This document shows positions 4,121 through 63,216 of a stretch of 64,000 nt of DNA, piece by piece. Position numbers and translations under genes: made by a program. A model generated the notes under the pieces. It was not told the origin of the DNA. It did not search any database and saw only the letters and a list, made by a program, of their open reading frames with translations. Position 1 is the stretch's first letter; every line of letters starts with the position of its first letter. Source of the stretch: Candidatus Magasanikiibacteriota bacterium (GTDB taxonomy: Bacteria > Patescibacteriota > Patescibacteriia > Magasanikbacterales > 2-02-FULL-50-9b); NCBI GenBank assembly GCA_903893485.1, contig CAITMK010000014.1, positions 66,144 through 130,143 on the forward strand. The letters run 5' to 3'.

Positions 4121-4122
4121 AC

Positions 4123-4823: not shown

Positions 4824-4833
4824 TTTAATCACT

Positions 4834-16628: not shown

Positions 16629-16679
16629 TCGGTTGTGGTATTGGGCGCCGGTCGGCGATGCAATACGAGGGGGTGACCG

Positions 16680-18340: not shown

Positions 18341-18363
18341 TGCTCTTGCCGCCGGTTAGGTGA

Positions 18364-27903: not shown

Positions 27904-28452
27904 TTGCCTATCCTTATCACCTACTTCGTCCACGGCACCACTTTGGACAATGAACAAGAAATTTCATCCGGCTGGTCAGACGCAGAGCTTTCCGCACTCG
28001 GCATTGAACAATCACACAAATTAAAAAATCTCACCGCCGATAAAACTTTCGACGCAATTTTTTGTTCGGACTTACAGCGCGCTATCGACACGGCACACAT
28101 CGCATTTGGCGATGGCCCCGCGCCCATCATCCACGACGCACGCCTGCGCGAATGCAACTACGGTACCTACAACGGCCAGCCCTCTGAAATCGTGGAACCG
28201 CTCCAAGAAAAAATGATCACCGAAAAATTCCCTGACGGTGAAAGTTACGAAGACGTCGGACATCGCATCTCGGATTTTTTACAATTCCTAAAACAAAACT
28301 ACGAAGGAAAACATATCGCGATCGTCGCGCACAAAGCGCCGCAGCTTGCGCTCGACGTATTACTCACCAGCAAAACCTGGGGCCAAGCATTCACAGAGGA
28401 TTGGCGAAAAATAAAAGCGTGGAAACCCGGTTGGGAATATCAACTTCTGTAA
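27904..28452 (+). CDS. Histidine phosphatase superfamily (phosphoglycerate-mutase-like) protein, with non-canonical VHG in place of RHG
   Basis: ITYFVHGTTLDNE … AIVAHKAPQLAL resemble the RHGxT and second-His motifs of branch-1 histidine phosphatases, but Arg is replaced by Val. Confidence 0.5.
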   Translation: MPILITYFVHGTTLDNEQEISSGWSDAELSALGIEQSHKLKNLTADKTFDAIFCSDLQRAIDTAHIAFGDGPAPIIHDARLRECNYGTYNGQPSEIVEPLQEKMITEKFPDGESYEDVGHRISDFLQFLKQNYEGKHIAIVAHKAPQLALDVLLTSKTWGQAFTEDWRKIKAWKPGWEYQLL

Positions 28453-28554
28453 AAAATTTGTGGATAAAAAAACACGCCCACCCGCCCCGCCATTACAGCA
28501 AGACAAGGTGAACGTCGTAACATGCGTTTCATTGCTGCATGTCAGAGCACATAG

Positions 28555-29175
28555 CTATAGTGAGGAGCGCCGCCAAAACTGCACCTGACCGCGCTCCTGT
28601 AAGAACCGCATGAATTCATCGCTGTGCGGCTCGTTCGACAACTCGTAACCCAGATCGCCAAAAATCGATGGTCCGCTGGGGCAAACGAGAGGCGCCGGTG
28701 CGTAACCTTTGACGAGGCTCGTGAACGTGTTGAATTCGATTGTTACCAGCCCGTCGCAAACAGCAAATTTCACATTACCGCTCAATCCGCCGGACTCATC
28801 CTTTTGAATTCTGCCCACTTCAAGTTCGGGCGGCCGCAGAGCTACAATCACGTGACGCATGTCACCTGCAGTCATACTAGCGATGACGACTTTCCCGCCG
28901 ACCGACGCGGACCGCAGCGCACGCTGCAGCACGTTGAAGCCGACCACCTCGTTCACGCGCGCCAGTTCAGCGCTTCCCCCGAGTTGCTGAACGGTCCGTA
29001 CGGCCTCTCGCGCAGATCGACGTTCGCGCAGTGTACGCCACAACTTACTTATACCAAGTGGATTTAGAAAATAGTTCTGGAAAAACATCGAGATCGGCGT
29101 CGTGAATTCGATAAACCAAAATCGCAACGCTAGCCGCTGCTCATCACCAAGGATCGTTTTAAGCCATCGCCACAT
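28555..29175 (-). CDS. Hypothetical protein (GC-elevated block)
   Basis: 206-aa ORF with clearly higher GC than the neighbours. No domain recognised. Confidence 0.45.
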   Translation of the reverse strand: MWRWLKTILGDEQRLALRFWFIEFTTPISMFFQNYFLNPLGISKLWRTLRERRSAREAVRTVQQLGGSAELARVNEVVGFNVLQRALRSASVGGKVVIASMTAGDMRHVIVALRPPELEVGRIQKDESGGLSGNVKFAVCDGLVTIEFNTFTSLVKGYAPAPLVCPSGPSIFGDLGYELSNEPHSDEFMRFLQERGQVQFWRRSSL

Positions 29176-29445
29176 GAGATTCTCCTTGCAAATTCAGAAA
29201 AAACATACCATCTTTTTACAAAGATGTCAACCTTGACAAAATCAATTTTCAATGCTTAAATACGAACGGCGTAATCAACGCTCACAACAAACAGACATTC
29301 GCTCTCACAGGAGATCCCAATGGCAAAGAAGAAAGCGCAGGGTCGCAAGCCCTGCATTCCGGTCAACGTCAGCTTTGACCGCAAACTGTCGCTGAAAGAA
29401 TAGGCCGCCATTTTCAGCCTCCCGCACACGCCAACGACCGAAAAG

Positions 29446-29661
29446 GTGGTGCGTGCGCTGTTCGTTGCCAATGGCGACGGCTACGCGCGCGAAATTCTGG
29501 ACGGCACGTGGAGTCGTGCGATGCAGCTCAACCGGCTGCTCATCAAGCACGGCTTGCCGTACCGCGTGCGGAGCTACCCGCTTTCGGAACTGGAGGCTCG
29601 CAAGCGCTACGACGGCTACGCGATTTCACAAGAAGGGCTCACGCTCGGCATTGTCATGTGA
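29446..29661 (+). CDS. Hypothetical small protein; in frame with the upstream 27-codon ORF (29320-29403) across a single TAG
   Basis: The ORF MAKKKAQGRKPCIPVNVSFDRKLSLKE-TAG is in the same frame as MVRALFVANGDGYAREILDG…. 29446-29320 = 126. Confidence 0.3.
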   Translation: MVRALFVANGDGYAREILDGTWSRAMQLNRLLIKHGLPYRVRSYPLSELEARKRYDGYAISQEGLTLGIVM

Positions 29662-29689
29662 ATCACCAACAAACCCAATGGAGGGCATC

Positions 29690-30319
29690 ATGCCGAAACT
29701 CGAAAAAATTCTCGGGGCGGCGGTGCCGCTCCTGACACTCGGCGCTTCGGTGCCACTGCTCATTGGCGGATGGCAACATCCGATCGAAATCAATTTGGCC
29801 GCGTACACGCTGTGGATCATGCTGGCAGCAATGCTCGCATACTCTATGTGGGCGCAGCACCAACCAACGTGGCGCATGATGCTTGGCTTTTTGCTCGGCA
29901 ACGTGAGCATGGTGACGCTTGGGCTGGTACGCGGCGGATACACATTCAACCTCGGCACATCTGAACTCATCGTGCTGTTCGGCATGGTACTCACCGTGGT
30001 CGTGTGGCTCACGGCTAGGCAAATCACCAGCTCAAGCAACCCGCGCATCCTGCTTTTGGGCGGAGTCACGATCGACGTGATCACCTACTACCCGCTGTTC
30101 AAGCAGTACCTCATGCAACACGAACCACCAACGGCGTGGATGAAGCTCGGCTGGTGCATGCAACTCACGGGCATAACGATTAACCTGTTCGTCGTGGAAC
30201 GCATTGTGCAAAAAATTCGGTATCACGAAAAGTCTTTGCCGAAGATTCTCGAAGAGTCGGCATTTTCGCTCGAGTGCTGCATTTTCATCTCGATGCTTCT
30301 GTGGCTGATCAACACGTAA
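29690..30319 (+). CDS. Hypothetical polytopic membrane protein
   Basis: Start MPKLEKILGAAVPLL. About 6 TM helices. Confidence 0.5.
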   Translation: MPKLEKILGAAVPLLTLGASVPLLIGGWQHPIEINLAAYTLWIMLAAMLAYSMWAQHQPTWRMMLGFLLGNVSMVTLGLVRGGYTFNLGTSELIVLFGMVLTVVVWLTARQITSSSNPRILLLGGVTIDVITYYPLFKQYLMQHEPPTAWMKLGWCMQLTGITINLFVVERIVQKIRYHEKSLPKILEESAFSLECCIFISMLLWLINT

Positions 30320-30391
30320 CAACCGCGTGCGGCGCACCGCAACAAACCCAATCTCACGGCTCGCAAAGCGTGGGGGCGGGTCTTTTTTTAT

Positions 30392-30449
30392 AAAAAAATC
30401 CCGCACCGCGAGTCACCAATTTCTGTGACATCCAAGCGGTGCGGGATTA
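30392..30449 (-). terminator. Rho-independent terminator (12-bp stem ATCCCGCACCGC / GCGGTGCGGGAT) downstream of the 30464-30865 gene
   Basis: Perfect 12-bp inverted repeat with a T run of at least 7 on the minus strand. An A run on the plus side could also serve the convergent plus-strand gene. Confidence 0.4.
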
Positions 30450-30463
30450 AAATTTCTAACGAC

Positions 30464-30865
30464 CTACGAAACCAATGCGCACGGATGCAGCGTGAACCAA
30501 AACGTCAAATCCTTTTTCAGGTTCGCCACGAACTCCACGATGAATGCTTCCAGAAAAGCGTAATTCCGCGGCGTCCGCTCCTTTGGCAACGCCTGCTCAA
30601 ACCGCTCGCTCAGCATGCAAATCAGCACGAACTTTGCCGTGTCCATGTTCGGCTGTACGAGCACCAACGGGTAGTTGAAGCCCTGTTCAACGTAACTCAT
30701 CAGGGTTTCCGTGTCCAAATCCTTCGGGCGCTCGATAGCATATACCTCCATCTGCCGTTCAAGCGCCTGGGGCACGGACGAGTACGCATGTGCCAGCGTC
30801 AACACTTCCTTCAAATAACCTTCCAGTTCCGCTTCGATCACTCGAGCCGTATCTGCGTGTGACAT
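30464..30865 (-). CDS. Hypothetical protein (GC-elevated block)
   Basis: Start MSHADTARV. 133 aa, no domain recognised. Confidence 0.45.
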   Translation of the reverse strand: MSHADTARVIEAELEGYLKEVLTLAHAYSSVPQALERQMEVYAIERPKDLDTETLMSYVEQGFNYPLVLVQPNMDTAKFVLICMLSERFEQALPKERTPRNYAFLEAFIVEFVANLKKDLTFWFTLHPCALVS

Positions 30866-31014
30866 AAATCCTACCTCGCGTGCCGGTCCGTTGGCTCGCA
30901 GCCACAATCTTATTTCAAAAAATCAGATTTAGCAAAAAATGTCAATATAAAAATAGGCAGCAGATGAGTCGCATCTACTGCCCAGATTGTCCTCCCGCGT
31001 TCGCGATTAGGCAA

Positions 31015-31860
31015 TCACTTTCCAAGCCACCGAATCCAATCGCGCAGCTTGCCTGTTGGTTTCACGCTCATAAGTCGCGTGCCATTGTTCCACGGCCATG
31101 CATGCACCACGCATGCCAGCGCTTCGCGATGAAAAGCACCCGGCCCACGCCCCAGTTGATGCTCTGCCAGCCCACTGACCGTGAGCAAATGCGCAACCGC
31201 CGTGTTTGGAACCACGCGAAGCGCCCGATCAAGCAGTTCGCGCGACGCATAATAGCAACCCATGGCATCTTGCATGCCCACGAGTCGCTCTTCATACATC
31301 GTTGGCTGAAGCCGCTGCCGCCGCCATTCGCGCACCAAGTTTTTGTGGTGAAGCAGATACGGTTCGGCATGCGGACCTAGGCGTGTTTGCCACAGCGGCT
31401 CCGCCATGATTTCGGCATGCGTCAGCGGCGTACCACTAAACGCCAAATCGCTGCGCCGCCACACTGCCTGCAAATCCAACACGGTCACCTTGCCGTAAAA
31501 GCCGTTTTCCAAGCGATGAAAATCCGCCGCCGAAATACGACCTCCGTACGTACGACCATGTGTGCACGTGCGATCGTGTGAATACGTCTCCAAAATTCCG
31601 GCGTACGTTGCAAGCGGGCCCACGCCATGCGCCACAATTACAATGGGGTTGCCCGCACGACTCAGTCCAACGTACTCCGCGGACAGCGTCGTGCAAAATC
31701 GTTCCCAAAAATCGTGACCCAGATTTGTGTGCAGCCGTGCGTCGATCACATCTGACACCGTAGCAATATGTCCTTGAGGTCCGCCACGCGTTTCTGCCTC
31801 CAAAAAAACTCGATCAAACTTTTCGCCATCGAAATGGAGTCCAAATTGATTTGCGCTCAT
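31015..31860 (-). CDS. Hypothetical protein (GC-elevated block)
   Basis: Start MSANQFG. 281 aa, no confident domain. Confidence 0.5.
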   Translation of the reverse strand: MSANQFGLHFDGEKFDRVFLEAETRGGPQGHIATVSDVIDARLHTNLGHDFWERFCTTLSAEYVGLSRAGNPIVIVAHGVGPLATYAGILETYSHDRTCTHGRTYGGRISAADFHRLENGFYGKVTVLDLQAVWRRSDLAFSGTPLTHAEIMAEPLWQTRLGPHAEPYLLHHKNLVREWRRQRLQPTMYEERLVGMQDAMGCYYASRELLDRALRVVPNTAVAHLLTVSGLAEHQLGRGPGAFHREALACVVHAWPWNNGTRLMSVKPTGKLRDWIRWLGK

Positions 31861-31954
31861 GTTCCCCTCCGAGATGAATGCCTTTTGCAAGCCTAACAAA
31901 ATGGCACGTGCTTGTCTAGCGTTTTTTATATATAATGAATCGAATTCAAAATAT

Positions 31955-32875
31955 ATGCCATGGTTTCTTGTTGTAATGCTTGCGGCGCTTTGTTGGAGTA
32001 TCGCTGTTCACACTGATAAATTTGTTTTGTCGCGATACTTTAAAGCAAGTGGGCCTGGTGGCTACATGCTATTTTCCACACTCGTACAACTGTGTGCAGT
32101 TGCAGCAATCATCGCAACACACCCAACTTTTTTTAATGTACCGCGCGCGCACATCGCAGGACTCGCGATAAGCGGCATCACCTACATCATCGCGATGCTC
32201 ATCTATTTGTGGGCCATGACCAAAGAAGAAGCAACGCGTGTCTCAATTATTTTTCAGACAATCCCCGTATTTTCATTCGTGCTCGAATATTTTTTTCTGC
32301 ACACTATTTTTTCGCGCAATCAAATCATTGGCGGCATTATTATTTTATGTGGTGCACTTCTTATCTCCATCGATAGCGCACATTCAAGCGCAAAAAAAAT
32401 TCACATTAAATATTCCGTGCTTGGTGCGATGCTTGGCGCATCAATTTTACTTGCCATTCAATGGATCGTATTCAAACAAAGCGCAATCGCTGGTGAATAT
32501 TGGCTCAGCGTTGGCTGGCAATATATGGGTTGTTTATTTGCCGGTGCATGTCTTTTTATTTTTGTTCGTCCATTTCGCAAAGATTTTTTTCATGTATTCA
32601 AAGCAAATGGTCCCGCGGTGCTCGCGCTGAATGTTGCAAACGATATTATTAATGAATCCGGTAATCGCTTGATGAGTTATGCGGTAATGTTTACTCCCGT
32701 CACTCTCGCGCAGCTCGCCAACGGTTTTCAAGCGGTGTTTGTTTTTCTTATCGGTATATCTCTTACAAAATTTTTTCCATCGATCTCGAAGGAGTCAATG
32801 ACCAAAAAAGATCTTATTCAAAAAATTACTGCGATCTCGATTATGCTTTTTGGTGCGTGGGTACTGGGTTGGTAA
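31955..32875 (+). CDS. EamA/DMT-superfamily transporter
   Basis: Start MPWFLVVMLAALCW. 10 TM helices in two 5-TM halves typical of EamA. Confidence 0.65.
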   Translation: MPWFLVVMLAALCWSIAVHTDKFVLSRYFKASGPGGYMLFSTLVQLCAVAAIIATHPTFFNVPRAHIAGLAISGITYIIAMLIYLWAMTKEEATRVSIIFQTIPVFSFVLEYFFLHTIFSRNQIIGGIIILCGALLISIDSAHSSAKKIHIKYSVLGAMLGASILLAIQWIVFKQSAIAGEYWLSVGWQYMGCLFAGACLFIFVRPFRKDFFHVFKANGPAVLALNVANDIINESGNRLMSYAVMFTPVTLAQLANGFQAVFVFLIGISLTKFFPSISKESMTKKDLIQKITAISIMLFGAWVLGW

Positions 32876-44839: not shown

Positions 44840-47800
44840 TCACTTCTTGGTAGCGTTTATGACTTTTCGAGTATAGTCATAGAAGTTCCTAGTTCCTTTT
44901 TTCAATTTCAGTGGCTTCAAAATAAGCGCTGCGTTTGCTTCCTGAAATTTCGTGATCGCTTTAGCAGTTGCCTGACTAAAACGCGTCGTCTCATTTCCTG
45001 GCGACCCAGGACCAGACTTTGCCACAACAAATCCATTTGTGTTCAAGAATTTTTGCAGCTCTTTTACATCAGCACCTGTTGCACCAATTTTCAGATTACG
45101 CGTAAATACATACGTATTTTTTATTGATTGAGCTTCAGAAACCGCGGTTTTGTCGAGTAACGATTTTACATCAAGCACCGCATTATTCTGCTTTAAATCA
45201 GTAAGTGCAATCGAAATGTCTGGGATTTTATCGTTATCAAGGTCAACTGAAACCAACTTCGCAAGTTTGAGTGTAAAAATTTGCGGAGTAGATTCAACAC
45301 GAATTGTTACCGTACCAGCTGCATAATCGATTGACACAATCGTAATGTGATGCGTTTGATCTGTGTATGTCTGACTCACGGGCGCGATAACCGTAGTCTG
45401 TACGCTCGCCGCGCCAGCTACAACTGCCGGAGGTGCGCCCGCCGCATCAACATGAACTAATGATTGCGTTTCGCCCGCCGCAACAGGGGCTGCAGGAGGA
45501 GGAGTTACTGATTGGACTGGCGGCTGAACTGGCGGAAGAGTCGTCGCTGGTGTTTGTACCGGAGTATCAGAATGTGAATCATTAGAATGCTCAGCCGGAG
45601 TTGGAGTTGGGCTTGGAGTACTAATTGCATTCCCACTGCCCCCACTACTGCTACCGCCGCCACCAACCTGACAAGGATTAGTTGTAACCGTTTGATCTCC
45701 ACTATAAACCGTACCTCCCAAATAAGTTGCGCGAGCACGATAATGATAAAGCGTATTACACTGAAGCCCTGTTAATGTCGTCGAAAACGAATTAGAGGAA
45801 AATCCATCTTCTTTTGTTTCATTTGTAGTCATTCCGTAACTATCCGTTAAACCATAGTCAAAACCGCGAGCCGTTGCGAGCGAATCATCAAGAGGATTGA
45901 AATTACCCACAACAACCACGTAACCATTCCAAACGCCGGGAGAACTCGATGCGGTAACGGTCGCGCTAAGCGAATTCGTAATTACCAGTTGCAGCAAATC
46001 AGTATTAAGGGAATGATGAATGCCTTGCGGCGCATTCACATACGTACCCCAATTAATTGCACGAGTATTATAAGTGCTCTGATATGCATTATGATCCGCA
46101 TCAGTTGGATAATTTTCAGTTTCTGTGTGATACGGATATTGCGTCATCTCGTTAAACGGTAATGGCGCTATCGTATCACCCGTTGGGTTGTGATATGACT
46201 TGTGGAAATCCCATGTTTTGTACAAGAAGTCTCGGGTTGTGCCTGGTGCTTGTACTGGCACATGATATTTGAGTGCTAATTCGTCACCCTGCGTTGCAAT
46301 AACAAATTTGTTATCAACATCCGTCACCAATGGCAACACATCACCATAACGCGTTGCATTTCCCGAAACCGGATTACCACCACCAACTGTTTTTGCGAGG
46401 CGGTCGTACACCGGCTGTGAAATTTGCATAAGCGGATCTTCAGGATCAGCACTTGTTAGTTCTGAAACACCGCGAAAATGCAAATCGGCATAATATGGCG
46501 CAAGGTTTGTTACCGTAACTGCCTGATCAGGACTCGTATCAACCGCCATCCAATTAATTACCCAGCGAAGCAAATTATTTGATGACCAAATACGAATTTC
46601 GTTGTCCTTGATATTCAGGCCAGACAAATCAATAACCTTTGTATCCATGCCATACGTGTTGGAATAGTTACGCGTACTTGTTGCCGTTCCGATACGCGTA
46701 CTATTAAACGGATCGTATTGCGCAGGAACATTCACAAAGACACCGCTTGAGTTTTTGTACTGTAATTTGTCTGAGCCGGTCCCACCACTTTGCGGACCTT
46801 CTTTGCCGCGTTTAATGACTAATTTCAAATGCGCTGGTGTTGATGTTGCATTTGATAATTTAATCGTTACATACGTTGGAATTTCTGTTTTTGAACTATG
46901 CCACGACAAATGATCATCATTTGCAATAAGCGATGTCACATCGATTCCATCTTGGTCTACAACTCTTACTGGCGCAGGAGCAGTCTTACTAATCGTATGA
47001 ATCTGTCGGTTGTTTCGATAATCTGGAAATACATCAACACTCGGATCATGATCAATTACCTGCAGTGCGGCCTGATCATAGTAGTTGACTTCATTCAACT
47101 CGAACGAAGTTTTGACATCATAATATGTTTCATCGCCTATAGTACGAGGTATGAGTTCACCGTGCGGAATTTTTACGTATGATTCAGGATTTGGAAATGC
47201 CATGGCCTTATAAAACGGCGTCGCTTTCCATTGATTTAAGTCACCACCAGAACCAAGCGTCGATGCACTCGAGGCATCAATGATGAAATTATATTTTGAC
47301 CCGTCATATGTCCACACAAACGGACATGAAGATGACAAGCCGTAGAGCATGCTATATTCATCGCTTGTGGTAATATTTCCTTCAGCATTAATTGAACGTA
47401 CACGATAATACCAACGAGAGCCCGATGTATCCTCGAACGTTGCACCAGCGTCCGCAGAGGCCCAGATATCCCCACCCCATGCGCCGATCAGTAATGTGCT
47501 ACCATCAGACGATGCAGCGGTCGACATCCAACATCCACTCAGCGTTGAATGCAATACCCATGTGACACCACCATCAGTTGAGGTATACATATTACCACAA
47601 TCCACACCCACGATAATTTTTTGGCCATCCGCAGAAACTGAAACGGTTTGCCAACCTGAATACCCAGGACCCGATTGCGCGATCCATGTAGCCCCGCCAT
47701 CGGTAGAAATATTTACAGTGTTAATATTCGAACCTACGGTAACCAATACATTTCCAGTTGCATCTGACGAAATAGCTTGCCAGTTTCCATAGCCCGATGC

Positions 47801-50668
47801 ATTGCCTTGCGTTGACCAATCCGTACCACCATTTGAGGTTGTGTAGACATATCCATTGTCCATGGTAGCAGCGACCTTATTTCCAGCAGCATTCATAGCG
47901 ATGCCTGTCCAATACTGTGTACCTGCGTTATCCTGACGCGTCCATACCCACGCACCATCTGTTTTGGTAGCAAGCCATATATAGCCGTAATCAGAGGCCG
48001 CAGCAATTTTTGTGCCATCACTATTCATTGTGATGCCCTGCCATCCAGCCGTACCTGGATCGGTTTGCTGCGTCCATACCCATGAGCCATCAATCAAATC
48101 CCCAGTCCAAATTGAGCTATTTGTTGCAGCAGCTACCACGTGATCGCCAGCGGTATCTTCGGCAACCGCACGCCAACAATTGCTGCCAGGATCATTTTGT
48201 AGTGTCCATGTCCACACACCATCGGTCTTAACACCAAGATACAAACTGTTACACCAATTTGCAGCAATTGCACGGTCACCTGCACCGTCAACTGCTAATC
48301 CATACCACAGCTTTCCGTTTGTATTATTCAGCGCTGGAGTAAGTGCATGCTGAGTTTCCATGTTGCTATCTGCAAGATGGTTTGCGTAATCATCCCAACT
48401 CGCATGCGAGATTGTGTCATACGCAATCATACTTGTTGATGAAGCATCGGTTGTCCACTGAATTGGAAGCAAGCCGCCATTTGCACCAACATTGGTAATC
48501 GTTACCGGACTGAAACTACTATCCGCCTGCGCTAATACCCACGAAGCTCCATCACCATCCTTGTACTGCGTGCCAGTCTTGTCTCCCGATAGCGTACAAT
48601 CCGTACCGCAATGCGCGGATCCAAGATGTTCCCACGCTGATGACAAAAAATTCCAAATCGAAATTGAAACTTGCTTGCCGTCTGGCACCGCACCATGACC
48701 CTGCCAATTAACCGTAAACTTTGGCTGGGTAATTCCCGTAAAATCCGTCGTAAATTTAAATACCTGAGAATCGAAACCGTTATCAATCTGAGAAAGTGCC
48801 GTGGTTAAATACGAACCATCGTGTGCGAGAATTGGATCGAATGAGCCAAACGCACTTCCTGGTTCTTCCGGTGTGGTACTCGCATTTGCGCTTTCATACG
48901 CAGCCACTGCGTTTGAGGTTATATTTGTTGGCGCATACGAAAAATTTAGAATTGCACTACCGTTATTTTCATAATATTCAACTGTAATAGTATGATCGCC
49001 CGCAGATAATGTTTCAACTTGAGTATCTGGACTCCATGGCGCATCACCACGATTTTGCCAACCATCCATTATGAGTGCCCCGTCAAGATACACTTTTGCA
49101 CCGTCATCGCTATCATCCTGAAACAAATAATCACCCGCATCAAAATGCGTCGTCTTACTAAATCGAGCAAGAAAGCCGTCGTTATTAATACCATTGCCCG
49201 GCGAACCATTTGCCCAATTAAATGCAATCACACGAGAGTTTGCGATATATGTCGGTGCAGTGGTTGGAAACTGAGGTCTGCTTGATGCGCCAGTTGGCAC
49301 ATTCCAATATTCAGCCAAATAGGAATCAGAATTCCCCCTCTCAAGTGGCCATAGATACGCAACATATGAATCATCAACGCCGCTAAAATAATAAATTTGA
49401 TCAACAGACGAAAAATATGTTTCCCCATCTAGATAACCGGGTTTTGTAAAATTAAATGCGATATTTGATCCATCAGAGCAGGAAGCAGCGTCGGGCGGCA
49501 TACCCACAACTTGCCCGTTTACATCCGTGGTGCCAAACTCTGTCCACGAACCATTGCAAAGCACTTTTACGTCCGCGCCGGAAATTGGTGTGCTGGTTGA
49601 GCTCAGCAAATTAAATTGCACATGGCCAAGCGCTGGACCGGAATTGTTTGCGTTCCATGTGGCGCCAGCATCGGAAGAGTTATAAAAATCGCCATATCTT
49701 TTCGCCGCAAGCCACATGTCACCATTTGTGTTAACCGCAACCGCGCCCCAATCAGCTGAGCCAGATGCATTATCATGGCTCGACCACGTTGCTCCACCAT
49801 TTTCTGATGTATACACATAACCACTATCGCCGGTCGAGAATCCATCGACAATATATTTATTTCCAGCGGAATTCACCGCAACAGAATTCCAATAGTGTGC
49901 CCCCAGATCAGTCATCGGTGTCCAATTCTGCCCCGCATCAGACGAAAGAAAAACATAGCCATATCCATACTCATCAGCTATCAAATTATTTCCACTCGCA
50001 TCAGATGCGATATTTTCCCAATTATGCGTGGTGTTCGTACCACTATTATTTGTCCAGGTGGCGCCATAATCTAATGAGGTATACACGTATCCATTATTTT
50101 GGTCAGTGGCAAATAATTTATCACCGAGGGCGTTTGAAGCAACTGAATACCAATAATGAATACCTACGGTCTTACGATCAGTCCATGTAGCACCATAGTC
50201 TGTCGAGGTCCATAAATCGCCAAGATTTTCTGACACAATAAGTTTGTCGCCCGCAGCATTTGAGGCGATCATATGTGCATTATGCGATCCTGTTATTGTT
50301 TGTCTTGTCCAGGTAAGGCCCGAGTCCGCGGAGACAAATACATGCCCTGATCCCTGTTCCAAAGCTGCAAAATGTGTGCCATCCCCAGATGATGCAATTG
50401 AAATCCAGCATCGATAACCCGCATTCGTACGTGCGGTCCATGTCGCACCACTATCGGTCGAGGTATAAAGATATCCACACCATGAACCCGCAATTACTTT
50501 AGTTCCGTCTGCTGAAGCCGCAAAGGTATTCCAGCTGTATGCTGCACCCGATGCAAGTACACGAGGGGTGTGCGAAAATAAAAAAACTGTAATTGCGAGC
50601 GCACATACTCCAATTACAGAAACCGCACAGAATAAAATTTTTTGTTTAAGGGTTTGCGGATGGGACAT
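44840..50668 (-). CDS. Giant cell-surface protein (1942 aa): N-terminal anchor, Asp-box (BNR) beta-propeller repeats, PA14-like domain, more Asp-box repeats, FN3-like domain, Pro/Thr-rich linker, C-terminal peptidoglycan-binding (PG_binding_1-like) domain
   Basis: At least 11 Asp-box motifs (YTSTDSGATWT, FVSADSGLTWT, WTSTDYGATWT, YTSLDYGATWT, YTTSNGGTDWS, YTSTDGGVTWV…). PA14-like segment (DAGDYLFQDDSDDGAKVYLDGALIMDGW…GDHTITVEYYENNGSAILNFSY). Linker TPSPTPTPAE…PPVQPPVQSVTPPPAAP. C-terminal LKIGATGADVKELQKFLNTNGF…TRFSQATAKAITKFQEANAL. Confidence 0.85.
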   Translation of the reverse strand: MSHPQTLKQKILFCAVSVIGVCALAITVFLFSHTPRVLASGAAYSWNTFAASADGTKVIAGSWCGYLYTSTDSGATWTARTNAGYRCWISIASSGDGTHFAALEQGSGHVFVSADSGLTWTRQTITGSHNAHMIASNAAGDKLIVSENLGDLWTSTDYGATWTDRKTVGIHYWYSVASNALGDKLFATDQNNGYVYTSLDYGATWTNNSGTNTTHNWENIASDASGNNLIADEYGYGYVFLSSDAGQNWTPMTDLGAHYWNSVAVNSAGNKYIVDGFSTGDSGYVYTSENGGATWSSHDNASGSADWGAVAVNTNGDMWLAAKRYGDFYNSSDAGATWNANNSGPALGHVQFNLLSSTSTPISGADVKVLCNGSWTEFGTTDVNGQVVGMPPDAASCSDGSNIAFNFTKPGYLDGETYFSSVDQIYYFSGVDDSYVAYLWPLERGNSDSYLAEYWNVPTGASSRPQFPTTAPTYIANSRVIAFNWANGSPGNGINNDGFLARFSKTTHFDAGDYLFQDDSDDGAKVYLDGALIMDGWQNRGDAPWSPDTQVETLSAGDHTITVEYYENNGSAILNFSYAPTNITSNAVAAYESANASTTPEEPGSAFGSFDPILAHDGSYLTTALSQIDNGFDSQVFKFTTDFTGITQPKFTVNWQGHGAVPDGKQVSISIWNFLSSAWEHLGSAHCGTDCTLSGDKTGTQYKDGDGASWVLAQADSSFSPVTITNVGANGGLLPIQWTTDASSTSMIAYDTISHASWDDYANHLADSNMETQHALTPALNNTNGKLWYGLAVDGAGDRAIAANWCNSLYLGVKTDGVWTWTLQNDPGSNCWRAVAEDTAGDHVVAAATNSSIWTGDLIDGSWVWTQQTDPGTAGWQGITMNSDGTKIAAASDYGYIWLATKTDGAWVWTRQDNAGTQYWTGIAMNAAGNKVAATMDNGYVYTTSNGGTDWSTQGNASGYGNWQAISSDATGNVLVTVGSNINTVNISTDGGATWIAQSGPGYSGWQTVSVSADGQKIIVGVDCGNMYTSTDGGVTWVLHSTLSGCWMSTAASSDGSTLLIGAWGGDIWASADAGATFEDTSGSRWYYRVRSINAEGNITTSDEYSMLYGLSSSCPFVWTYDGSKYNFIIDASSASTLGSGGDLNQWKATPFYKAMAFPNPESYVKIPHGELIPRTIGDETYYDVKTSFELNEVNYYDQAALQVIDHDPSVDVFPDYRNNRQIHTISKTAPAPVRVVDQDGIDVTSLIANDDHLSWHSSKTEIPTYVTIKLSNATSTPAHLKLVIKRGKEGPQSGGTGSDKLQYKNSSGVFVNVPAQYDPFNSTRIGTATSTRNYSNTYGMDTKVIDLSGLNIKDNEIRIWSSNNLLRWVINWMAVDTSPDQAVTVTNLAPYYADLHFRGVSELTSADPEDPLMQISQPVYDRLAKTVGGGNPVSGNATRYGDVLPLVTDVDNKFVIATQGDELALKYHVPVQAPGTTRDFLYKTWDFHKSYHNPTGDTIAPLPFNEMTQYPYHTETENYPTDADHNAYQSTYNTRAINWGTYVNAPQGIHHSLNTDLLQLVITNSLSATVTASSSPGVWNGYVVVVGNFNPLDDSLATARGFDYGLTDSYGMTTNETKEDGFSSNSFSTTLTGLQCNTLYHYRARATYLGGTVYSGDQTVTTNPCQVGGGGSSSGGSGNAISTPSPTPTPAEHSNDSHSDTPVQTPATTLPPVQPPVQSVTPPPAAPVAAGETQSLVHVDAAGAPPAVVAGAASVQTTVIAPVSQTYTDQTHHITIVSIDYAAGTVTIRVESTPQIFTLKLAKLVSVDLDNDKIPDISIALTDLKQNNAVLDVKSLLDKTAVSEAQSIKNTYVFTRNLKIGATGADVKELQKFLNTNGFVVAKSGPGSPGNETTRFSQATAKAITKFQEANAALILKPLKLKKGTRNFYDYTRKVINATKK

Positions 50669-53510: not shown

Positions 53511-54119
53511 TTAGGGGCGAAGACAAACGCCCAAGATCGCGAACGCTGCCGCCGAAACGATCATGGTCGCCACGTTAACCCGGTCGAGCCACGGCCCATT
53601 TTGGTACCAAGGCAACTTCAGGAGCCGCAAGGGATGCGAGCCCAGAAAGATTACGAGCCACAGTCCGCTGCCCATGAGCACCAAATCGTGCACGGACCGG
53701 CCAGACGTTGCCGACGAGTAGAAAAGCAGCACCACCGTGATCACCGCACCCATGAACAGTGCGTGCATCCAGCCCGACAACGTTACGCGATGGTGCATGA
53801 CGTGCGCTTCGAACGCAGGGCTTTTGGCATACCACAACTGCGCAATCAAGCCGAGTGTGATTCCTGCCGTACCTGCGCGCCAGATGTTGTAGTTACTCCA
53901 CTGAGCATGGTACGTCCCGATGATGTACCCCATGAGCGGCGAGATGACGAGTAGGTCGCCCCACATTGCCAAATGTGCGTTCCACGGAATGCTGCGCGCC
54001 ACGTGATGGCGGTCCAACATTTGCCGCCACGAGAATGTACCTTCGATGTAAGAAAACAACCCGCCCCACATACACACCACAAAGAAACCGACTGCCCACA
54101 AAATTCCAACACTGTTCAT
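53511..54119 (-). CDS. Hypothetical polytopic membrane protein (GC-elevated)
   Basis: 202 aa, about 6 TM helices, His-rich loops. Confidence 0.5.
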   Translation of the reverse strand: MNSVGILWAVGFFVVCMWGGLFSYIEGTFSWRQMLDRHHVARSIPWNAHLAMWGDLLVISPLMGYIIGTYHAQWSNYNIWRAGTAGITLGLIAQLWYAKSPAFEAHVMHHRVTLSGWMHALFMGAVITVVLLFYSSATSGRSVHDLVLMGSGLWLVIFLGSHPLRLLKLPWYQNGPWLDRVNVATMIVSAAAFAILGVCLRP

Positions 54120-54271: not shown

Positions 54272-55870
54272 TTGTACCTTAAAAATATGCAGGGATTCAA
54301 TAGAATCTTGGGAAGCGCCACGACACTTTTATTCGTGTTAAGCTTTGCAGGACCCACAACCTTATTCGCCGCAAATCCACCACCACTCGGATATTCGATT
54401 ACCTATGGTATTCTTGCGAACACTTATACCAACACCACACTTGGAACAACAGTGGCTGGCGATATTGGTTACACAACTGCTCCAGCAATTGTGGCGGCTG
54501 GCGTTCACAACAATCTTGGCTCCGAAGCGCCGTATGCTGCGGCTGGAGCAGATCAAGGCACTGCATTAGCAAATTTAAATTCACAACCCTGTACTTTCAC
54601 TTTTGCACCAGGAGCAATTGATCTTTCAACAGATACAACTCACGGAACAATTGCCACATATGGCCCGGGTGTATATTGCAGTACCGGCGCAATGGATGTT
54701 GGCGGCCCTATTTCACTTAACGGCGCTGGCACCTATATTTTTAGACCAAGCGGCGCACTTACTTCAACAACCGGTTCTGTAATTTCATTATCTGGCGCGT
54801 CTGCTTGTAATGTATTTTGGACACCAGGAGGCGCAACATCATTGGCAACAAATACTACTTTTGTTGGTACTGATATTGATGTCGCTGGCATAACCGTTGG
54901 ATCAACTGTAACTTGGGTTGGCCAAGCATTAGCATTTGGAGGAACCATTAGCACTGACGCAGATACCATCAGCGTTCCAAACTGTACAGTTGTACCAAAA
55001 GCACCGATCGTTGGACAAGGTGGAGGTTACACAACACCAACCGCAGCCGTTGTACCACCACTTATTCATATTACAAAAATTCCAGACCCACTTTTATTAA
55101 CCGCTGGACCTGGATTAGTAACATACAATTACACGGTAACCAATGTTGGTCTTGTGCCAATGAGTAATATTACCGTCATCGACAATAAATGCAGCGCGGT
55201 TACCCTGTTATCTGGCGATTCAAATCTTGATTCAAAACTTGATGTTGGAGAAATTTGGAAATATCGTTGTGCCATGACGCTTTCCGAAACAACAACGAAT
55301 ACAGTTACCGCAACGGGGCAAGCAAGCGGTCTAACTGCAACCGATATCGCAGAATCAACGGTTGCTGTGAGCGCACCACTTCCTCCACCACTTATTGACC
55401 TTATCAAAATTCCAGACCCACTGGTACTTCCATCGACTGGTGGTGTAGTAAAATATACCTACACCGTTACCAATCCTGGCGTCACACCACTTAGCAACGT
55501 TTCGGTGGTTGATGATAAATGTATTCCCGTAAGCGGACCAAGTGGTGACACAAACAATAATAATTTGTTAGACATGAACGAGACGTGGACATATACGTGC
55601 AGCTCAGTGTTACACGAAACCACCGCTAACGTCGGCACTGCTACCGGGAGCGCCAATGGTATGTCAGCTCAGCATTCTTCAATTGCGCTCGTTGTTGTAA
55701 ATGCACCCGCACTAACAATAAAAACGCCAACCTCAACAGTTCCAAAATTACCAAACACGGGTGTTAACCAAAACAATAATTTCTTGCAAATTTGTTTTGG
55801 CCTTGTGGGATTATTTGCACTTTTAGCAGCGTTCTTTAAAGGCAAAGAAATTCTTGCATCGCGCCGCTAA
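54272..55870 (+). CDS. LPXTG-anchored surface protein: N-terminal ice-binding-like (DUF3494) domain plus two DUF11/CARDB-like repeats
   Basis: Signal peptide. LGYSITYGILANTYTNTTLGTTVAGDIGYTTAPA… resembles the DUF3494 N-terminus. Two roughly 100-aa repeats (IPDPL…YxYTVTNxG…). C-terminal LPNTG plus hydrophobic stretch plus KGKEILASRR. Confidence 0.75.
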   Translation: MYLKNMQGFNRILGSATTLLFVLSFAGPTTLFAANPPPLGYSITYGILANTYTNTTLGTTVAGDIGYTTAPAIVAAGVHNNLGSEAPYAAAGADQGTALANLNSQPCTFTFAPGAIDLSTDTTHGTIATYGPGVYCSTGAMDVGGPISLNGAGTYIFRPSGALTSTTGSVISLSGASACNVFWTPGGATSLATNTTFVGTDIDVAGITVGSTVTWVGQALAFGGTISTDADTISVPNCTVVPKAPIVGQGGGYTTPTAAVVPPLIHITKIPDPLLLTAGPGLVTYNYTVTNVGLVPMSNITVIDNKCSAVTLLSGDSNLDSKLDVGEIWKYRCAMTLSETTTNTVTATGQASGLTATDIAESTVAVSAPLPPPLIDLIKIPDPLVLPSTGGVVKYTYTVTNPGVTPLSNVSVVDDKCIPVSGPSGDTNNNNLLDMNETWTYTCSSVLHETTANVGTATGSANGMSAQHSSIALVVVNAPALTIKTPTSTVPKLPNTGVNQNNNFLQICFGLVGLFALLAAFFKGKEILASRR

Positions 55871-55882
55871 TCGAAAAACATT

Positions 55883-56479
55883 TTGTCCGCAAAAATTCTA
55901 AAATTTGGAATTCTTGGAGTAATCGTAGTTGGTTCTGTAGGCATGTATTTTCAAAATGCCTATGGCACCTCTTCGTATTCAATCGAATTCGCACCCTCGC
56001 TAGAAAATAATGCTGCCCTACCCGCCATTCATATTGGTGCGCCACAACGAATCCAAATTCCAGAAATTGCGCTTGATGCGGTAATCGAAAGCGTTGCTTT
56101 AACAGCAGACGGATCAATGGACGTACCAAAAGATCCTCTCAATGCCGGCTGGTATTCGCTTGGACCCCGACCAGGAGAAATCGGAAGTGCAGTTATCGAT
56201 GGTCATGTAAACTGGATACACAACAGTGTCGCTGTTTTTACAGATCTTCACAAAATAATATCAGGAGACACCATAATCATATCTGACGATACTGGCGCAC
56301 AAACAAAATTTAGCGTTCGCAAAACAGAACTCTACAACGCCGCAGAAAATGCAGCGGATATTTTTACATCAACAGATAATAAATCTCATTTAAATTTGAT
56401 CACCTGCGACGGAGAATGGGATAAAGTTGCGCGCCAATATAAACAAAGATTTATTGTCTTTGCAGACAAAGTTGATTAA
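55883..56479 (+). CDS. Sortase family transpeptidase
   Basis: N-terminal TM, catalytic His (VIDGHVNW), TLxTC active-site motif (LNLITCDGEWD). 12 nt downstream of the LPXTG gene. Confidence 0.75.
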   Translation: MSAKILKFGILGVIVVGSVGMYFQNAYGTSSYSIEFAPSLENNAALPAIHIGAPQRIQIPEIALDAVIESVALTADGSMDVPKDPLNAGWYSLGPRPGEIGSAVIDGHVNWIHNSVAVFTDLHKIISGDTIIISDDTGAQTKFSVRKTELYNAAENAADIFTSTDNKSHLNLITCDGEWDKVARQYKQRFIVFADKVD

Positions 56480-56487: not shown

Positions 56488-56790
56488 TTAAAATGTTTTG
56501 TCTAAAAGCTCAGCAAGTTTCTTTTTGGCGCTAATTGTAAACACAATTTTTTCTTCATCGCTACGCGCAGCCATCACTTGATTTATCTTTTCAAGATCGC
56601 CAGCCTGCATTGCCACGGCTAATTCTTTTGCATTTTCATCGCCTATCGTTTTCACGTATTCGCTCAAGCCAAATAACACAGCCAATTCAAAAGCGCCCAT
56701 GAGATACTTTTCAGTTTCTTCTTCGCTAATTCCCTGCGCTAATAATTTTTCGCGACCTTCCGCCAACTGATGTACAAAAATAGTAAGCAT
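56488..56790 (-). CDS. Hypothetical protein
   Basis: 100-aa helical acidic ORF. Confidence 0.4.
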   Translation of the reverse strand: MLTIFVHQLAEGREKLLAQGISEEETEKYLMGAFELAVLFGLSEYVKTIGDENAKELAVAMQAGDLEKINQVMAARSDEEKIVFTISAKKKLAELLDKTF

Positions 56791-60195: not shown

Positions 60196-63100
60196 TTACG
60201 CCCCAAGCGTATCCAAAGGCTTCCGTGGTGCTGAACGCAGATGCCGTGCCTGAGCACGAAGCACCTCGAGTTTCAAATTATCATCTGAAATAATATCTCC
60301 TCGAATTGTCGTGAATTTACCAGGCTCGCCCGCAAACTCCTTGCTTGCCATTTTTGCAAACGCCTCCACCATATCTTCGGGAGGTTTGTTACCCTGATTC
60401 AGGTATTTCTTTGAAAGAATAAAAACTCGATGAGTATTCGTACCAAGTTTTTTAAACATTTTCTTTGCTCGCTGAAGATCTTCTTTTGTGTCTATGATAA
60501 CCGCGCCTTCTGGTAATCCAAGCTTTTTTTCGCGAGAATCATCATTTGGCGGACCACTTTCACCCCCTTTCGGTGGGCGTGGCTCTGATGATGGAGTTTC
60601 CATTGCACCACGCGCCCATTCAGGTGTTACCAAAATCGGATCAATCCAGCCCGCGCCCGCGCCATTCAGATTTTTTACAACTGTTGTTGTATCTTCAATC
60701 GCGTGAATAATCGCGCCACCCGGACCATGACCAACACCTGTTGCAAGCGTATCATATCCTGCGGTACCACCACGTCGAAACACCGCTTCTGCAGCAAATT
60801 TAAGTTTACCGGCTTTGTTAATTAAAATATCGTGCAATGGATCTGACTTATCGATGACTAATTCTCCATGCTCATCTAATGGGATATCTACGCCCATAAC
60901 ATGCACCTTGAAGTTGCTTGCAACATCTTTTAGATTGCCGCCTCTTACCGCAGCGCGCAAATCTGCAAATTTATTATCATGCGTTCCGTCCGTATTTTTT
61001 GCACCATGCTTCATCATTTGTTGAAGCATTTTCTTCATAGAAAGCACGGTTTTACCAACACGATGTCTCAATTCAAGCTGCTGCTCCTTACCATCAAATT
61101 TAAACGTTTCATTGTTATGGTAATCGGCTCGAGCTCCTGGCGCATGTCCAAAACGATTTTCCATGTATGCTTTTATGCCCGCGTTATTCAGATGATGTGT
61201 AACAACTGCGTGATCCACAACTGTTTGAACCGCGTCTACTTTTACAATGCCGGCGTGAACAAGCGCTGCGTGCAATGCGCCCACATCATGACCCTGAAAA
61301 ACTTTGGAAAGCGGAAGACCCCAATTGTCAACAAGCATCCCCATCCCCTTATCGTTTGTTATAAACTGAACGTGATCTGGGAGCTGCACATGCGATCCAT
61401 CTGGAAGAGTAATGTTGTGAATTTGAGAAGTTATTTCGCTGCCACCCAAAAATGTTTTCACAATATGTTCTGACCCACTGTGAATCCAGTTTGAAAGAGA
61501 ATTCATTGAGCCACTGAGTCCATCATTATACAAACTACTGCCGGCATTAATCACCGAGCGCATCAGCACACCACCCGCGATACCAATAACAGAGCCGCCA
61601 ACAACTGCCTTTACCGTTTCCCAACGTTTGAAGCTTTTAAATTCATCATCTTGTTTTGCGACAGCTGCGAGTGTACCCTCTTCCATATGTCGCATATCTT
61701 CCGCGAAGATCTCTGCATTACCCGCTTCGGCTTGAATACGTTTTAATTCCGCACGAATTTTATTAAGCGAAAAAAGTTTTGTATTTCTTGCACCTTCTTC
61801 TGCATCAACCGCAAACATATCGATATGATTTGTGCGTTCGATTTTTTCTTTTGCCATGATTTGGCTTATGTTTGTGCGCTGCTCAGGTGTTAGCCGTGCG
61901 CCATTACACGTTTGCAAATATGCAATTACTTCACCGGCCTGCATGATCTCATCTCGATATCCAAGGCTGCGAATTTTTTCGGCGCGGTCACCACCTGCAT
62001 GTTTACCCAGTGCTTCTCGGCGCATTTCAAGACCGCGATCGCGTCTTAATTCTGCTGAACGGCGTGCACCGGCAAAACCACCGCCCATAAGTGCAGCGGC
62101 TGCTACTGGCGCTCCCGCCAACAATGATGAGCCTCTGACGCCCACACCAATACCCATTCTCACAGCAAAATTGGCAAGCGCACTAGTTGCAGCACCCGCA
62201 AAAATAGGACTCGTTAACCGTCCAAGAATTGGAAGCGACTGAATACGGTTTACAACATTATCTACAAACGATTTTGATCCATCAGGAAATCGATTTGCGA
62301 TATCACGTTCCTTTCGACCAAGCTGCACATCAACTGCCATGGTGCCACGAACAAACTTTGCGATAGCTTCTTTATTTTCTGCTCCATGTTCGGCAGCAGC
62401 TTCTTGAATTGAACGCTGAATTTCTGACTTATATTCTTCTGCGTATTTAAAAAGATTTGTTGCGTACAGTGCACCCTGATCATTTGCCGCCACAGGTCCC
62501 TTCGAAAATGTGCGGCCCTTAAGATAAGTTTGCACGATACGTACATCAACTTCTCTGTCGAATTCAGCACGCGTTCGAATCTCTCCTTGTGCGTAGCGCA
62601 TCATAATCGATGCAACTTCTTGGTTGATTTGTTCATTGTTTTCAATTTTTTCGCCTTTTTCGTGTTCTTGAACAAGACCCTGATCGTACGCTTTAAATAC
62701 TTCATCTAAATACTTTTCCGAGTCACCCAAACTTCCAGGCGTAATTACAACATCACTTTTGTGGATCAAGTGCGCTTCAATGGTTGCCATCAAATTACGA
62801 TTCTGAATAATTGCGGATTTTGCTTCCTGAAAAAATTTCTCTCGCTGACCACTTCCACCCGCACGTGCCAAGAACCGCTTAAAAAAACCATTCTTTTTAG
62901 TATCATTCAAATATTCATTCTCTTTTTCTTCAGCAACACGCTGCGCAAGCTGATTCACAAGCGGCGTCACATCATTCACACCCATTTCAAATTTCATGGA
63001 TGGAAGACGAGCGGGGCGTTTTACGTCATCAGTCACCTCGTTCAAGTTTTTTACACGCATGTAATCTTCAAGCGTAAACCGCGGATCCTCTTTATATGAC

Positions 63101-63216
63101 ACATGAAGCGCGTCACGAATTCGCGCTGATAATTCCGCGTCAGTTTCGTCAGATGCAGCATCACGACCATAGGTGGCGTCGGTGATTTCAAATTTTTTGA
63201 AAGGTTCTTTTGGCAT
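60196..63216 (-). CDS. Giant hypothetical protein (1006 aa) with two internal Gly-rich TM regions separating three soluble regions
   Basis: Long uninterrupted ORF. TM/Gly-zipper segments (ILGRLTSPIFAGAATSALANFAVRMGIGVGV…AGAPVAAAALMGGGFAG and AVVGGSVIGIAGGVLM). No recognisable catalytic motif. Confidence 0.7.
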   Translation of the reverse strand: MPKEPFKKFEITDATYGRDAASDETDAELSARIRDALHVSYKEDPRFTLEDYMRVKNLNEVTDDVKRPARLPSMKFEMGVNDVTPLVNQLAQRVAEEKENEYLNDTKKNGFFKRFLARAGGSGQREKFFQEAKSAIIQNRNLMATIEAHLIHKSDVVITPGSLGDSEKYLDEVFKAYDQGLVQEHEKGEKIENNEQINQEVASIMMRYAQGEIRTRAEFDREVDVRIVQTYLKGRTFSKGPVAANDQGALYATNLFKYAEEYKSEIQRSIQEAAAEHGAENKEAIAKFVRGTMAVDVQLGRKERDIANRFPDGSKSFVDNVVNRIQSLPILGRLTSPIFAGAATSALANFAVRMGIGVGVRGSSLLAGAPVAAAALMGGGFAGARRSAELRRDRGLEMRREALGKHAGGDRAEKIRSLGYRDEIMQAGEVIAYLQTCNGARLTPEQRTNISQIMAKEKIERTNHIDMFAVDAEEGARNTKLFSLNKIRAELKRIQAEAGNAEIFAEDMRHMEEGTLAAVAKQDDEFKSFKRWETVKAVVGGSVIGIAGGVLMRSVINAGSSLYNDGLSGSMNSLSNWIHSGSEHIVKTFLGGSEITSQIHNITLPDGSHVQLPDHVQFITNDKGMGMLVDNWGLPLSKVFQGHDVGALHAALVHAGIVKVDAVQTVVDHAVVTHHLNNAGIKAYMENRFGHAPGARADYHNNETFKFDGKEQQLELRHRVGKTVLSMKKMLQQMMKHGAKNTDGTHDNKFADLRAAVRGGNLKDVASNFKVHVMGVDIPLDEHGELVIDKSDPLHDILINKAGKLKFAAEAVFRRGGTAGYDTLATGVGHGPGGAIIHAIEDTTTVVKNLNGAGAGWIDPILVTPEWARGAMETPSSEPRPPKGGESGPPNDDSREKKLGLPEGAVIIDTKEDLQRAKKMFKKLGTNTHRVFILSKKYLNQGNKPPEDMVEAFAKMASKEFAGEPGKFTTIRGDIISDDNLKLEVLRAQARHLRSAPRKPLDTLGA

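Follow-up and report, generated by a model that had tools for sequence, protein, structure and literature searches.

The window analysed in this work is a 64,000-nt stretch of contig CAITMK010000014.1 (assembly GCA_903893485.1, positions 66,144 to 130,143 of the forward strand) from a Candidatus Magasanikiibacteriota bacterium, a member of the Patescibacteria or Candidate Phyla Radiation (CPR). It contains a two-gene unit in which a gene for a predicted surface protein, hereafter called the substrate, is followed directly by a gene for a sortase. The substrate combined a signal peptide, a DUF3494 (Ice_binding-like) head, two immunoglobulin (Ig)-like stalk domains and a C-terminal LPNTG sorting signal. 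Taken together, the data point to a short fibrillar-adhesin-like protein that would be displayed on the wall by its cognate sortase and would act in adhesion rather than in ice binding, a reading to which we assign a probability of about 0.62.

The N-terminal part of the substrate belonged to DUF3494 by sequence as well as by structure, as the initial annotation of this DNA had proposed. The Pfam profile PF11999 (Ice_binding) matched residues 48-233 with 60.9 bits (cutoff 28.7), covering profile positions 2-207 of 208; the NCBIfam equivalog IBP_CFB gave 22 bits for a cutoff of 400, indicating that the substrate is not that specific ice-binding protein. A profile obtained from 24 family members matched every solved DUF3494 ice-binding protein across the full domain (5e-31 for 5uyt, 3e-19 for 4nu2, and also 6eio, 3wp9 and others). 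In the AlphaFold2 (AF2) model of the whole protein (mean predicted local distance difference test, pLDDT, of 84.7), residues 30-233 formed the expected right-handed beta-helix, together with a helix at residues 83-99, with pLDDT values of about 86-97. The top 30 matches obtained for this head with Foldseek against the PDB were all DUF3494 ice-binding proteins, with template modelling (TM) scores of 0.66-0.88 for single-domain targets; the best of them was 7bwx (AnpIBP; TM 0.88, root-mean-square deviation 1.8 A), and 5uyt was matched at E 1e-9. Identity between the head and the solved DUF3494 structures was 20-29%. Ahead of the head, inspection of the sequence revealed the features of a Sec-type signal peptide (basic R6, a hydrophobic core and a putative cleavage site LFA/A, MQGFNRILGSATTLLFVLSFAGPTTLFA being followed by ANPPPLG). 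The AF2 model presented an N-terminal helix at residues 4-19, and in the family alignment (A1) the N-terminus was hydrophobic and variable up to a conserved A-x-A/A-T-T-P-S-L-G boundary.

Behind the head, the AF2 model displayed a disordered linker (residues 234-251) leading to two Ig-like sandwiches modelled with confidence, which were followed by another disordered linker and by a C-terminal helix (residues 498-526). The two repeats of this region had been described as CARDB/DUF11-like; two DUF11-related Ig-like repeats were indeed present, but they corresponded to CLIPPER_2 and not to CARDB. Thus, PF24346 (DUF7507/CLIPPER_2) matched in two stretches (45.1 bits, cutoff 27; the best at residues 373-463 of the 532-aa form defined below), DUF11 was sub-threshold on the stalk (18 vs. 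24.6) and the Pfam search gave no match to CARDB on the substrate. The two repeats were 52% identical to each other (E 3e-35), and a model of the stalk only reached a pLDDT of 94.9. CLIPPER_2 is the new name of DUF7507, a stalk domain of the CnaA-like type that occurs in fibrillar adhesins and for which an intramolecular Lys-Asp-Asn isopeptide bond, often accompanied by a disulfide, is predicted (PMC12617251). K264, N338, K374, D409 and N448 were invariant in A1, as were C302, C328, C412 and C438; D299 occupies the position equivalent to D409 but was not among the invariant residues, and the reference Lys of CLIPPER_2 (profile position 8) mapped to K374. Judging from these residues, the stalk domains would probably be locked by intramolecular Lys-Asn isopeptide bonds and one disulfide each. 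In relatives of the substrate the linker between head and stalk varied in length and was the insertion site of extra SpaA_2 or CLIPPER_2 modules (A1 and Pfam architectures). At the C-terminus, the LPNTG motif, hydrophobic stretch and basic tail noticed initially were evident in the translation and were matched by the NCBIfam model TIGR01167 (LPXTG_anchor; 19.0 bits, cutoff 15.9), Pfam Gram_pos_anchor being sub-threshold (14.5 vs. 20).

The gene located 12 nt downstream, which had also been read as a sortase from the sequence, gave 77.2 bits with PF04203 (cutoff 26.6). In the alignment with the solved sortases 4d70 and 8t28, His108 and Cys175 fell on the catalytic residues and Arg189 lay at its usual place after the NLITC strand, the His-Cys-Arg triad being therefore intact. 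Of the two outcomes named initially as refuting the annotation, absence of a DUF3494 profile match and an incomplete sortase triad, neither was observed. Among 66 aligned neighbouring sortases from related loci the three residues were conserved almost without exception (H in 63/63, C in 65/65 and R in 65/66). The best class by far was class F (NF033748 class_F_sortase; 120.3 bits for a cutoff of 166, below which the enzyme falls), as compared to 26.6 bits for class GN, 22.6 for class E, 22.3 for class C (cutoff 160) and 19.2 for class D, and the CPR sortase was 35-41% identical to annotated class F sortases. By these scores the enzyme is class F-like and is not filed here as a class F member. 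Its anchor was N-terminal only, the C-terminus ending in FADKVD with no C-terminal anchor, and inspection of the sortase revealed no DP[FWY] motif of the lid type.

Residues of the substrate are numbered throughout in the 527-aa form, unless the 532-aa form is stated (Table 1). The public NCBI/ENA copy of the protein (P0001) has 527 aa, is 100% identical and begins at ATG 54287, which is a more likely start than TTG 54272. Public gene calls differ on the start of the sortase, between 198 aa from TTG 55883 and a cluster representative of 178 aa that would drop the N-terminal membrane anchor; since sortase homologues align from residue 1 of the 198-aa form, the longer form was favoured. A terminator scan found no terminator-like site between the two genes, and their neighbours, a divergent membrane-protein gene (53511-54119) and a convergent small gene (56488-56790), are both on the opposite (-) strand, thus reflecting an isolated two-gene unit. 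Substrate and sortase genes are probably co-transcribed. Promoter and terminator scans around the pair yielded fewer sites than shuffled controls and were uninformative.

Table 1. Features of the substrate-sortase unit (positions in the 64,000-nt window) and, in the last two rows, related cassettes outside CPR (positions in the respective loci).
Feature	Position	Strand	Remarks
Substrate gene	54287..55870	+	527 aa; predicted secreted, sortase-anchored surface protein; ORF (open reading frame) list, domain matches, AF2 model
Alternative substrate start	TTG 54272	+	54272..55870, 532 aa
Sec-type signal peptide MQGFNRILGSATTLLFVLSFAGPTTLFA	54287..54370	+	Sequence inspection; putative cleavage after LFA
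DUF3494/Ice_binding-like right-handed beta-helix head	54374..54985	+	Flanking alpha-helix, residues 83-99
Flexible linker TVVPKAPIVGQGGGYTTP	54986..55039	+	pLDDT <50 at residues 234-251
CLIPPER_2 (DUF7507) Ig-like stalk repeat 1	55040..55369	+	Cys pair C302/C328
Repeat 1, candidate isopeptide residues	K264 55076-55078; D299 55181-55183; N338 55298-55300	+	
CLIPPER_2 (DUF7507) Ig-like stalk repeat 2	55370..55702	+	Cys pair C412/C438
Repeat 2, candidate isopeptide residues	K374 55406-55408; D409 55511-55513; N448 55628-55630	+	
LPNTG sortase recognition motif	55748-55762	+	Translation
Rest of sorting signal: spacer, hydrophobic stretch FLQICFGLVGLFALLAAFF, basic tail KGKEILASRR, stop	55763..55870	+	Conserved in A1
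Intergenic spacer TCGAAAAACATT	55871..55882	+	12 nt
Sortase gene	55883..56479	+	198 aa, class F-like, TTG start
Sortase N-terminal membrane anchor ILKFGILGVIVVGSVGMYF	55895-55951	+	
Sortase catalytic residues	His108 56204-56206; Cys175 56405-56407; Arg189 56447-56449	+	Cys175 in NLITC
Rhodococcus sp. WAY2 pRWAY01 (L162)	3602-5874		
Arthrobacter sp. TMP15 (L163)	3575-5464		

The association of the two genes was analyzed in both directions. With the window sortase as query, tblastn gave matches in 70/81 loci selected by the substrate, and at the ORF level a same-strand sortase started within 1.5 kb of the substrate stop in 50 of the 67 loci with at least 1.5 kb of sequence downstream; in most of the remaining loci the sortase was slightly farther, past an extra paralogue. 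Conversely, sortases of the window's type were encoded in 587 metagenomic stretches, and among the best 80 of them, 47 had at least 2.2 kb upstream of the sortase; a same-strand DUF3494 domain was found upstream in 36 of these 47 (77%). In most of the exceptions the gene directly upstream still coded for an LPXTG protein built from these stalk modules, examples being DUF3494 plus SpaA_2 (226 bits, more canonical), two SpaA_2 plus CLIPPER_2, and CLIPPER_2-only proteins. Tandem or multiple units of a DUF3494-LPXTG protein and a sortase occurred at several loci (L012, L047, L077, L007 and L048), and two contigs of one metagenome-assembled genome (MAG; L064 and L079) carried one pair each, which suggests one enzyme per substrate. 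The same layout recurred in well over a hundred independent loci, and therefore the arrangement is far beyond chance. The synteny in both directions and the tandem units, together with the presence of exactly one sortase and one canonical LPXTG ORF in the 64-kb window, indicated a cognate cassette instead of a chance neighbour, in line with the dedicated substrate-enzyme pair suggested at the outset. At one of the loci (L128, 2597-3700) a sortase domain was fused to a C-terminal PG_binding_1 domain (54.7 and 43.2 bits); upstream of this fusion sortase two CLIPPER_2-only LPXTG proteins were encoded, and downstream of it a second sortase.

The cassette was found in nearly all Patescibacteria lineages and is common, not rare. 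A word-indexed protein search returned more than 1,500 homologues with the PF11999 plus PF24346 architecture, labelled in databases as 'ice-binding family protein [Patescibacteria group bacterium]', 'LPXTG-motif cell wall-anchored protein' or 'uncharacterized repeat protein (TIGR01451 family)'. A signal of the [LFIMV]Px[TSA]G type, followed by a hydrophobic stretch and a basic tail, was present in 113 of the 120 best homologues (94%), LPNTG being the commonest motif (55/120 homologues; 28/78 loci). These figures, and the annotation of such proteins in Actinomycetota as well, contradicted the initial statement that DUF3494 proteins are rarely anchored to the wall by a sortase, which does not hold for this phylum. 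An exhaustive search of cluster representatives at 50% identity yielded 7,536 proteins at E <= 1e-3 and 805 at E <= 1e-30. When one genome per species was searched, 186 matching loci were obtained, distributed among Uhr-, Pacei-, Zambryski-, Doudna-, Nomura-, Buchanan-, Taylor-, Lipton-, Moranii-, Berkel-, Peri-, Peregrini-, Gracili- and Absconditabacteria and Saccharimonadales; the closed genomes Berkelbacteria CP011213.1 and Peribacteria OZ246396.1 are among those with the cassette. The habitats that could be identified from the names of the homologue records were groundwater (Hainich, Rifle and New Zealand), a deep-mine observatory and Lake Pavin. Some cassette-bearing MAG records are titled 'uncultured Gammaproteobacteria' or 'Pseudomonadales' (L002, L011, L019, L023 and L080 among them) or 'Actinomycetota' (L070), and are probably mislabelled or mis-binned. 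The repeats of the substrate also matched 9-35 stretches in giant proteins of 2,000-7,000 aa (P0121-P0134 and similar), in which the CLIPPER_2 module is predicted to build very long surface fibres.

A comparable arrangement was found outside CPR. In RefSeq, an 'ice-binding family protein' is followed by a 'class F sortase' in Rhodococcus sp. WAY2 (plasmid pRWAY01) and Arthrobacter sp. TMP15 (pAsp15-1), with gaps of 65 and 120 nt between the two genes and PF11999 scores of 223 and 210 bits for the upstream proteins, respectively. Other sampled class F sortases outside CPR (L165, L167, L168 and L169 among the loci) were located directly downstream of one same-strand gene, coding for DUF4397 in Thermomicrobium and for hypothetical proteins in Planococcus, Streptomyces and Cryobacterium. 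Order, strand and tight spacing in these cassettes of Actinomycetota, Bacillota and Thermomicrobiota were the same as in CPR, the upstream products having likewise a signal peptide and a C-terminal transmembrane segment with a basic tail, as well as a DUF3494 head in two cases. In contrast, the motifs preceding the transmembrane segment were HPETG, MPDTG, GVETG and HVGTG; the actinobacterial neighbours present non-canonical motifs (HPETG, GVETG, HVGTG) and low-complexity or collagen-like stalks, whereas the CPR cassette has a canonical LPxTG, CLIPPER_2 stalks and a sortase below the NCBIfam class F cutoff. Class F sortases would share a general arrangement, of which the CPR cassette appears to be the form with a canonical motif. 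Neighbours of srtF1 and srtF4 with such termini were noted but set aside in a 2026 work on Actinoplanes, since a pentapeptide motif could not be recognised in them (PMC13251363); these 'motif-less' srtF neighbours may be explained by a relaxed x-x-(E/D/G)-T-G motif. In a plasmid of Streptomyces sp. NBC_01001 (L164, 3629-5542), a DUF3494 domain (217 bits) was fused to collagen triple-helix repeats (130 bits) in a protein ending in a transmembrane segment and a basic tail, with no sortase gene nearby.

The way in which the cassette would operate can be outlined from the well-established sortase pathway, on which all steps after translation are modelled. The substrate would be exported by the Sec system with removal of its signal peptide, and its C-terminal hydrophobic stretch and basic tail would hold it in the membrane. 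The co-expressed, membrane-anchored class F-like sortase would then attack the LPNTG motif between Thr and Gly through Cys175, forming a thioacyl intermediate, and transfer to the amine of a peptidoglycan precursor would leave the head a few nanometres off the wall. The head would finally contact its target on a surface or on another cell, the most plausible one being, rather than ice, a glycan or lattice of the host-cell envelope in epibiotic attachment.

In kind, a sortase-anchored adhesin of this type is known and recognisable to a specialist, its relatives being already labelled in databases. The substrate resembles Gram-positive sortase-anchored fibrillar adhesins of the MSCRAMM type in its signal peptide, adhesive head, Ig-like stalk and LPXTG signal, in the CnaA-like isopeptide superfamily to which the stalk belongs and in its presumed biogenesis. 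It differs from them in having two stalk domains only, in its Patescibacterium host and in the sortase gene immediately downstream, as compared with the housekeeping class A or E sortase encoded elsewhere for the Gram-positive adhesins. The operational definition of a fibrillar adhesin by Monzon and Bateman (an adhesive domain, a stalk domain and an LPXTG anchor) applies to the substrate, its adhesive function being predicted. Ice_binding is listed as an adhesive domain in surveys of fibrillar adhesins (PMC8286594), and Pfam holds an 'Ice-binding-like adhesive' family. As to the cellular context, CPR cells have no outer membrane and more than half of them possess a sortase (PMC6744442); work on Saccharibacteria has postulated unidentified close-range surface adhesins that act after contact by pili.

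Divergence of the two partners bears on whether the protein could instead be a general coat or structural component of the envelope, or else bind abiotic surfaces, minerals or polymers with no role in recognising a host, the enzyme then being a housekeeping sortase that happens to lie beside its most abundant substrate. The near-universal presence of the cassette in CPR lineages with very different presumed hosts is compatible with such a role, as are the sortases found in more than half of CPR genomes (PMC6744442) and the good conservation of the head within the window's subfamily (median 63%). In loci selected by the substrate, the head indeed appeared better conserved than the sortase (63% vs. 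47-51%); this turned out to be an artefact, since those loci were picked by head motifs, and the control with loci selected by the sortase reversed it, with an identity of about 35% for the head and of 51-55% for the sortase. Heads more diverged than sortases are as expected of an exposed binding module. Moreover, several cassettes per genome, each with its own sortase, are hard to square with a single housekeeping enzyme in genome-reduced organisms. We consider the coat explanation unlikely.

A second alternative is a sortase-polymerised pilus, in which subunits would be joined head-to-tail by LPNT-to-Lys isopeptide bonds in the style of class C enzymes, giving a fibre tipped or lined with beta-helix heads. 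As in SpaA-type Gram-positive pili, which depend on a class C sortase, the cassette has an adjacent dedicated sortase, a hallmark of pilus islands when it serves a single substrate, and isopeptide-type Ig-like domains ending in LPXTG, the stalk belonging to the CnaA-like isopeptide superfamily that pilins use (PMC12617251). SpaA_2 pilin-type domains occur in related cassettes (L143 and L112), and some loci contain tandem paralogues and two sortases. However, the sortase scored far lower for class C than for class F (22 vs. 120 bits), has only the N-terminal anchor and showed no lid-type DP[FWY]; the only invariant lysines, K264 and K374, are the intramolecular isopeptide positions, no separate pilin-motif Lys being conserved; and no ancillary pilin genes were present in the ORF list of the window. 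In addition, the sole class F sortase studied biochemically is described as housekeeping and LPXTG-specific (PMC13251363 among the sources). A polymerised pilus thus appears decidedly improbable.

The least probable explanation, a genuine ice-binding or antifreeze protein that would hold the cell to ice or keep a liquid film at its surface, is favoured by true DUF3494 homology (profile matches to IBPv, FfIBP, EfcIBP and ColAFP over the full domain; TM 0.88 with AnpIBP) and by related cassettes in a meltwater-pond Arthrobacter and on a plasmid of a glacier Cryobacterium, but we regard it as very improbable in view of the non-freezing origin of the identifiable homologues (aquifer, deep mine and lake, as judged from record names), of a family spanning essentially all CPR lineages and of the 60.9 bits of the CPR subfamily with PF11999 vs. 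210-226 for actinobacterial proteins. To our knowledge, the majority of DUF3494 proteins belong to organisms that are not cold-dwelling, and no ice activity has been demonstrated for them. The solved DUF3494 ice-binding proteins (IBPv 5uyt, FfIBP 4nu2, EfcIBP 6eio, ColAFP 3wp9, AnpIBP 7bwx and SfIBP_1 6bg8) share the head fold and detectable homology with the substrate, and SfIBP_1, from its molecule name, also combines DUF3494 with Ig-like domains; in contrast, their sources are polar or sea-ice organisms, their ice activity has been measured and most of them are soluble secreted proteins, whereas the substrate is predicted to be wall-anchored and belongs to a divergent subfamily whose relatives have identifiable sources that are non-freezing.

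Adhesion was favoured, since Ice_binding is an adhesive module in the surveys, the habitats are non-freezing and the heads diverge faster than the sortases, and the initial preference for adhesion over ice binding was judged reasonable. Several points weigh against the proposed reading as a whole. We know of no ligand for any of the non-ice DUF3494 domains, and with two stalk domains only the substrate is short for a fibrillar adhesin. The links of the sortase with the substrate and with peptidoglycan are predicted from sequence, and a sole LPXTG protein in 64 kb is not proof of a sole substrate in the genome. The enzyme falls short of the class F cutoff, and for class F sortases themselves the physiological role is described as unknown (PMC13251363). 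As regards the stalk, phmmer against PDB sequences returned nothing, the CLIPPER structure 9IFR included, and Foldseek with the stalk model gave generic tandem Ig-like matches only (integrin, RbmA, transglutaminase and AgI/II), with nothing specific to CLIPPER.

In the literature searched, no paper joined DUF3494 with a sortase, or DUF3494 with CPR or Patescibacteria, and neither the phylum-wide conservation of the cassette nor its link to class F sortases was found. A 2026 preprint on a 'novel pilus system' of CPR (Pam pili) was set aside as unrelated, since these pili rely on donor-strand exchange. We may speculate, with rather low confidence, that the cassette is an ancient attachment module spread over the whole CPR, corresponding to the missing close-range adhesin that acts after pilus contact; that class F sortases would be single-substrate enzymes serving the gene immediately upstream through a relaxed x-x-(E/D/N)-T-G motif; and that DUF3494 would be primarily an adhesion fold from which ice binding derived.

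Other regions of the window were also distinctive. A block of high GC content (0.58-0.62) extended over positions 12000-20500, the rest of the window being otherwise at about 0.44; the composition profile displayed a second, milder rise (0.53) at 28000-32000. The block codes for a Cys-rich repeat protein with four Cu-binding_MopE matches (12548-14464, - strand; 145 bits) and for a Cys-rich protein with Dicty_CTDC repeats (14709-16436, - strand; 87 bits), its three further ORFs having no Pfam match. The block may hold secreted Cys-rich proteins of the kind described in Peribacteria (PMC4736985), may be an island of foreign origin or may result from a chimeric assembly. A second giant surface protein, of 1,942 aa (44840-50668, - strand), is encoded 3.6 kb from the sortase pair; it has Sortilin/BNR beta-propeller repeats, PA14 and, at the C-terminus, PG_binding_1, a predicted non-covalent peptidoglycan anchor in place of LPXTG. 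An ORF of 1,006 aa (60196-63216, - strand) gave no Pfam match at E <= 0.001, and a transfer-messenger RNA gene was identified at 27356-27755 (125 bits), which was not reported by ARAGORN.

Beyond type IV pili, the attachment of Patescibacteria to their hosts is largely unknown, and the cassette constitutes a tractable candidate for it: it is small and conserved across the radiation, and consists of one enzyme, one substrate and one canonical motif. It also offers a concrete hypothesis for the role of class F sortases, and further supports the view that the name 'ice-binding' misleads when applied to most DUF3494 proteins.

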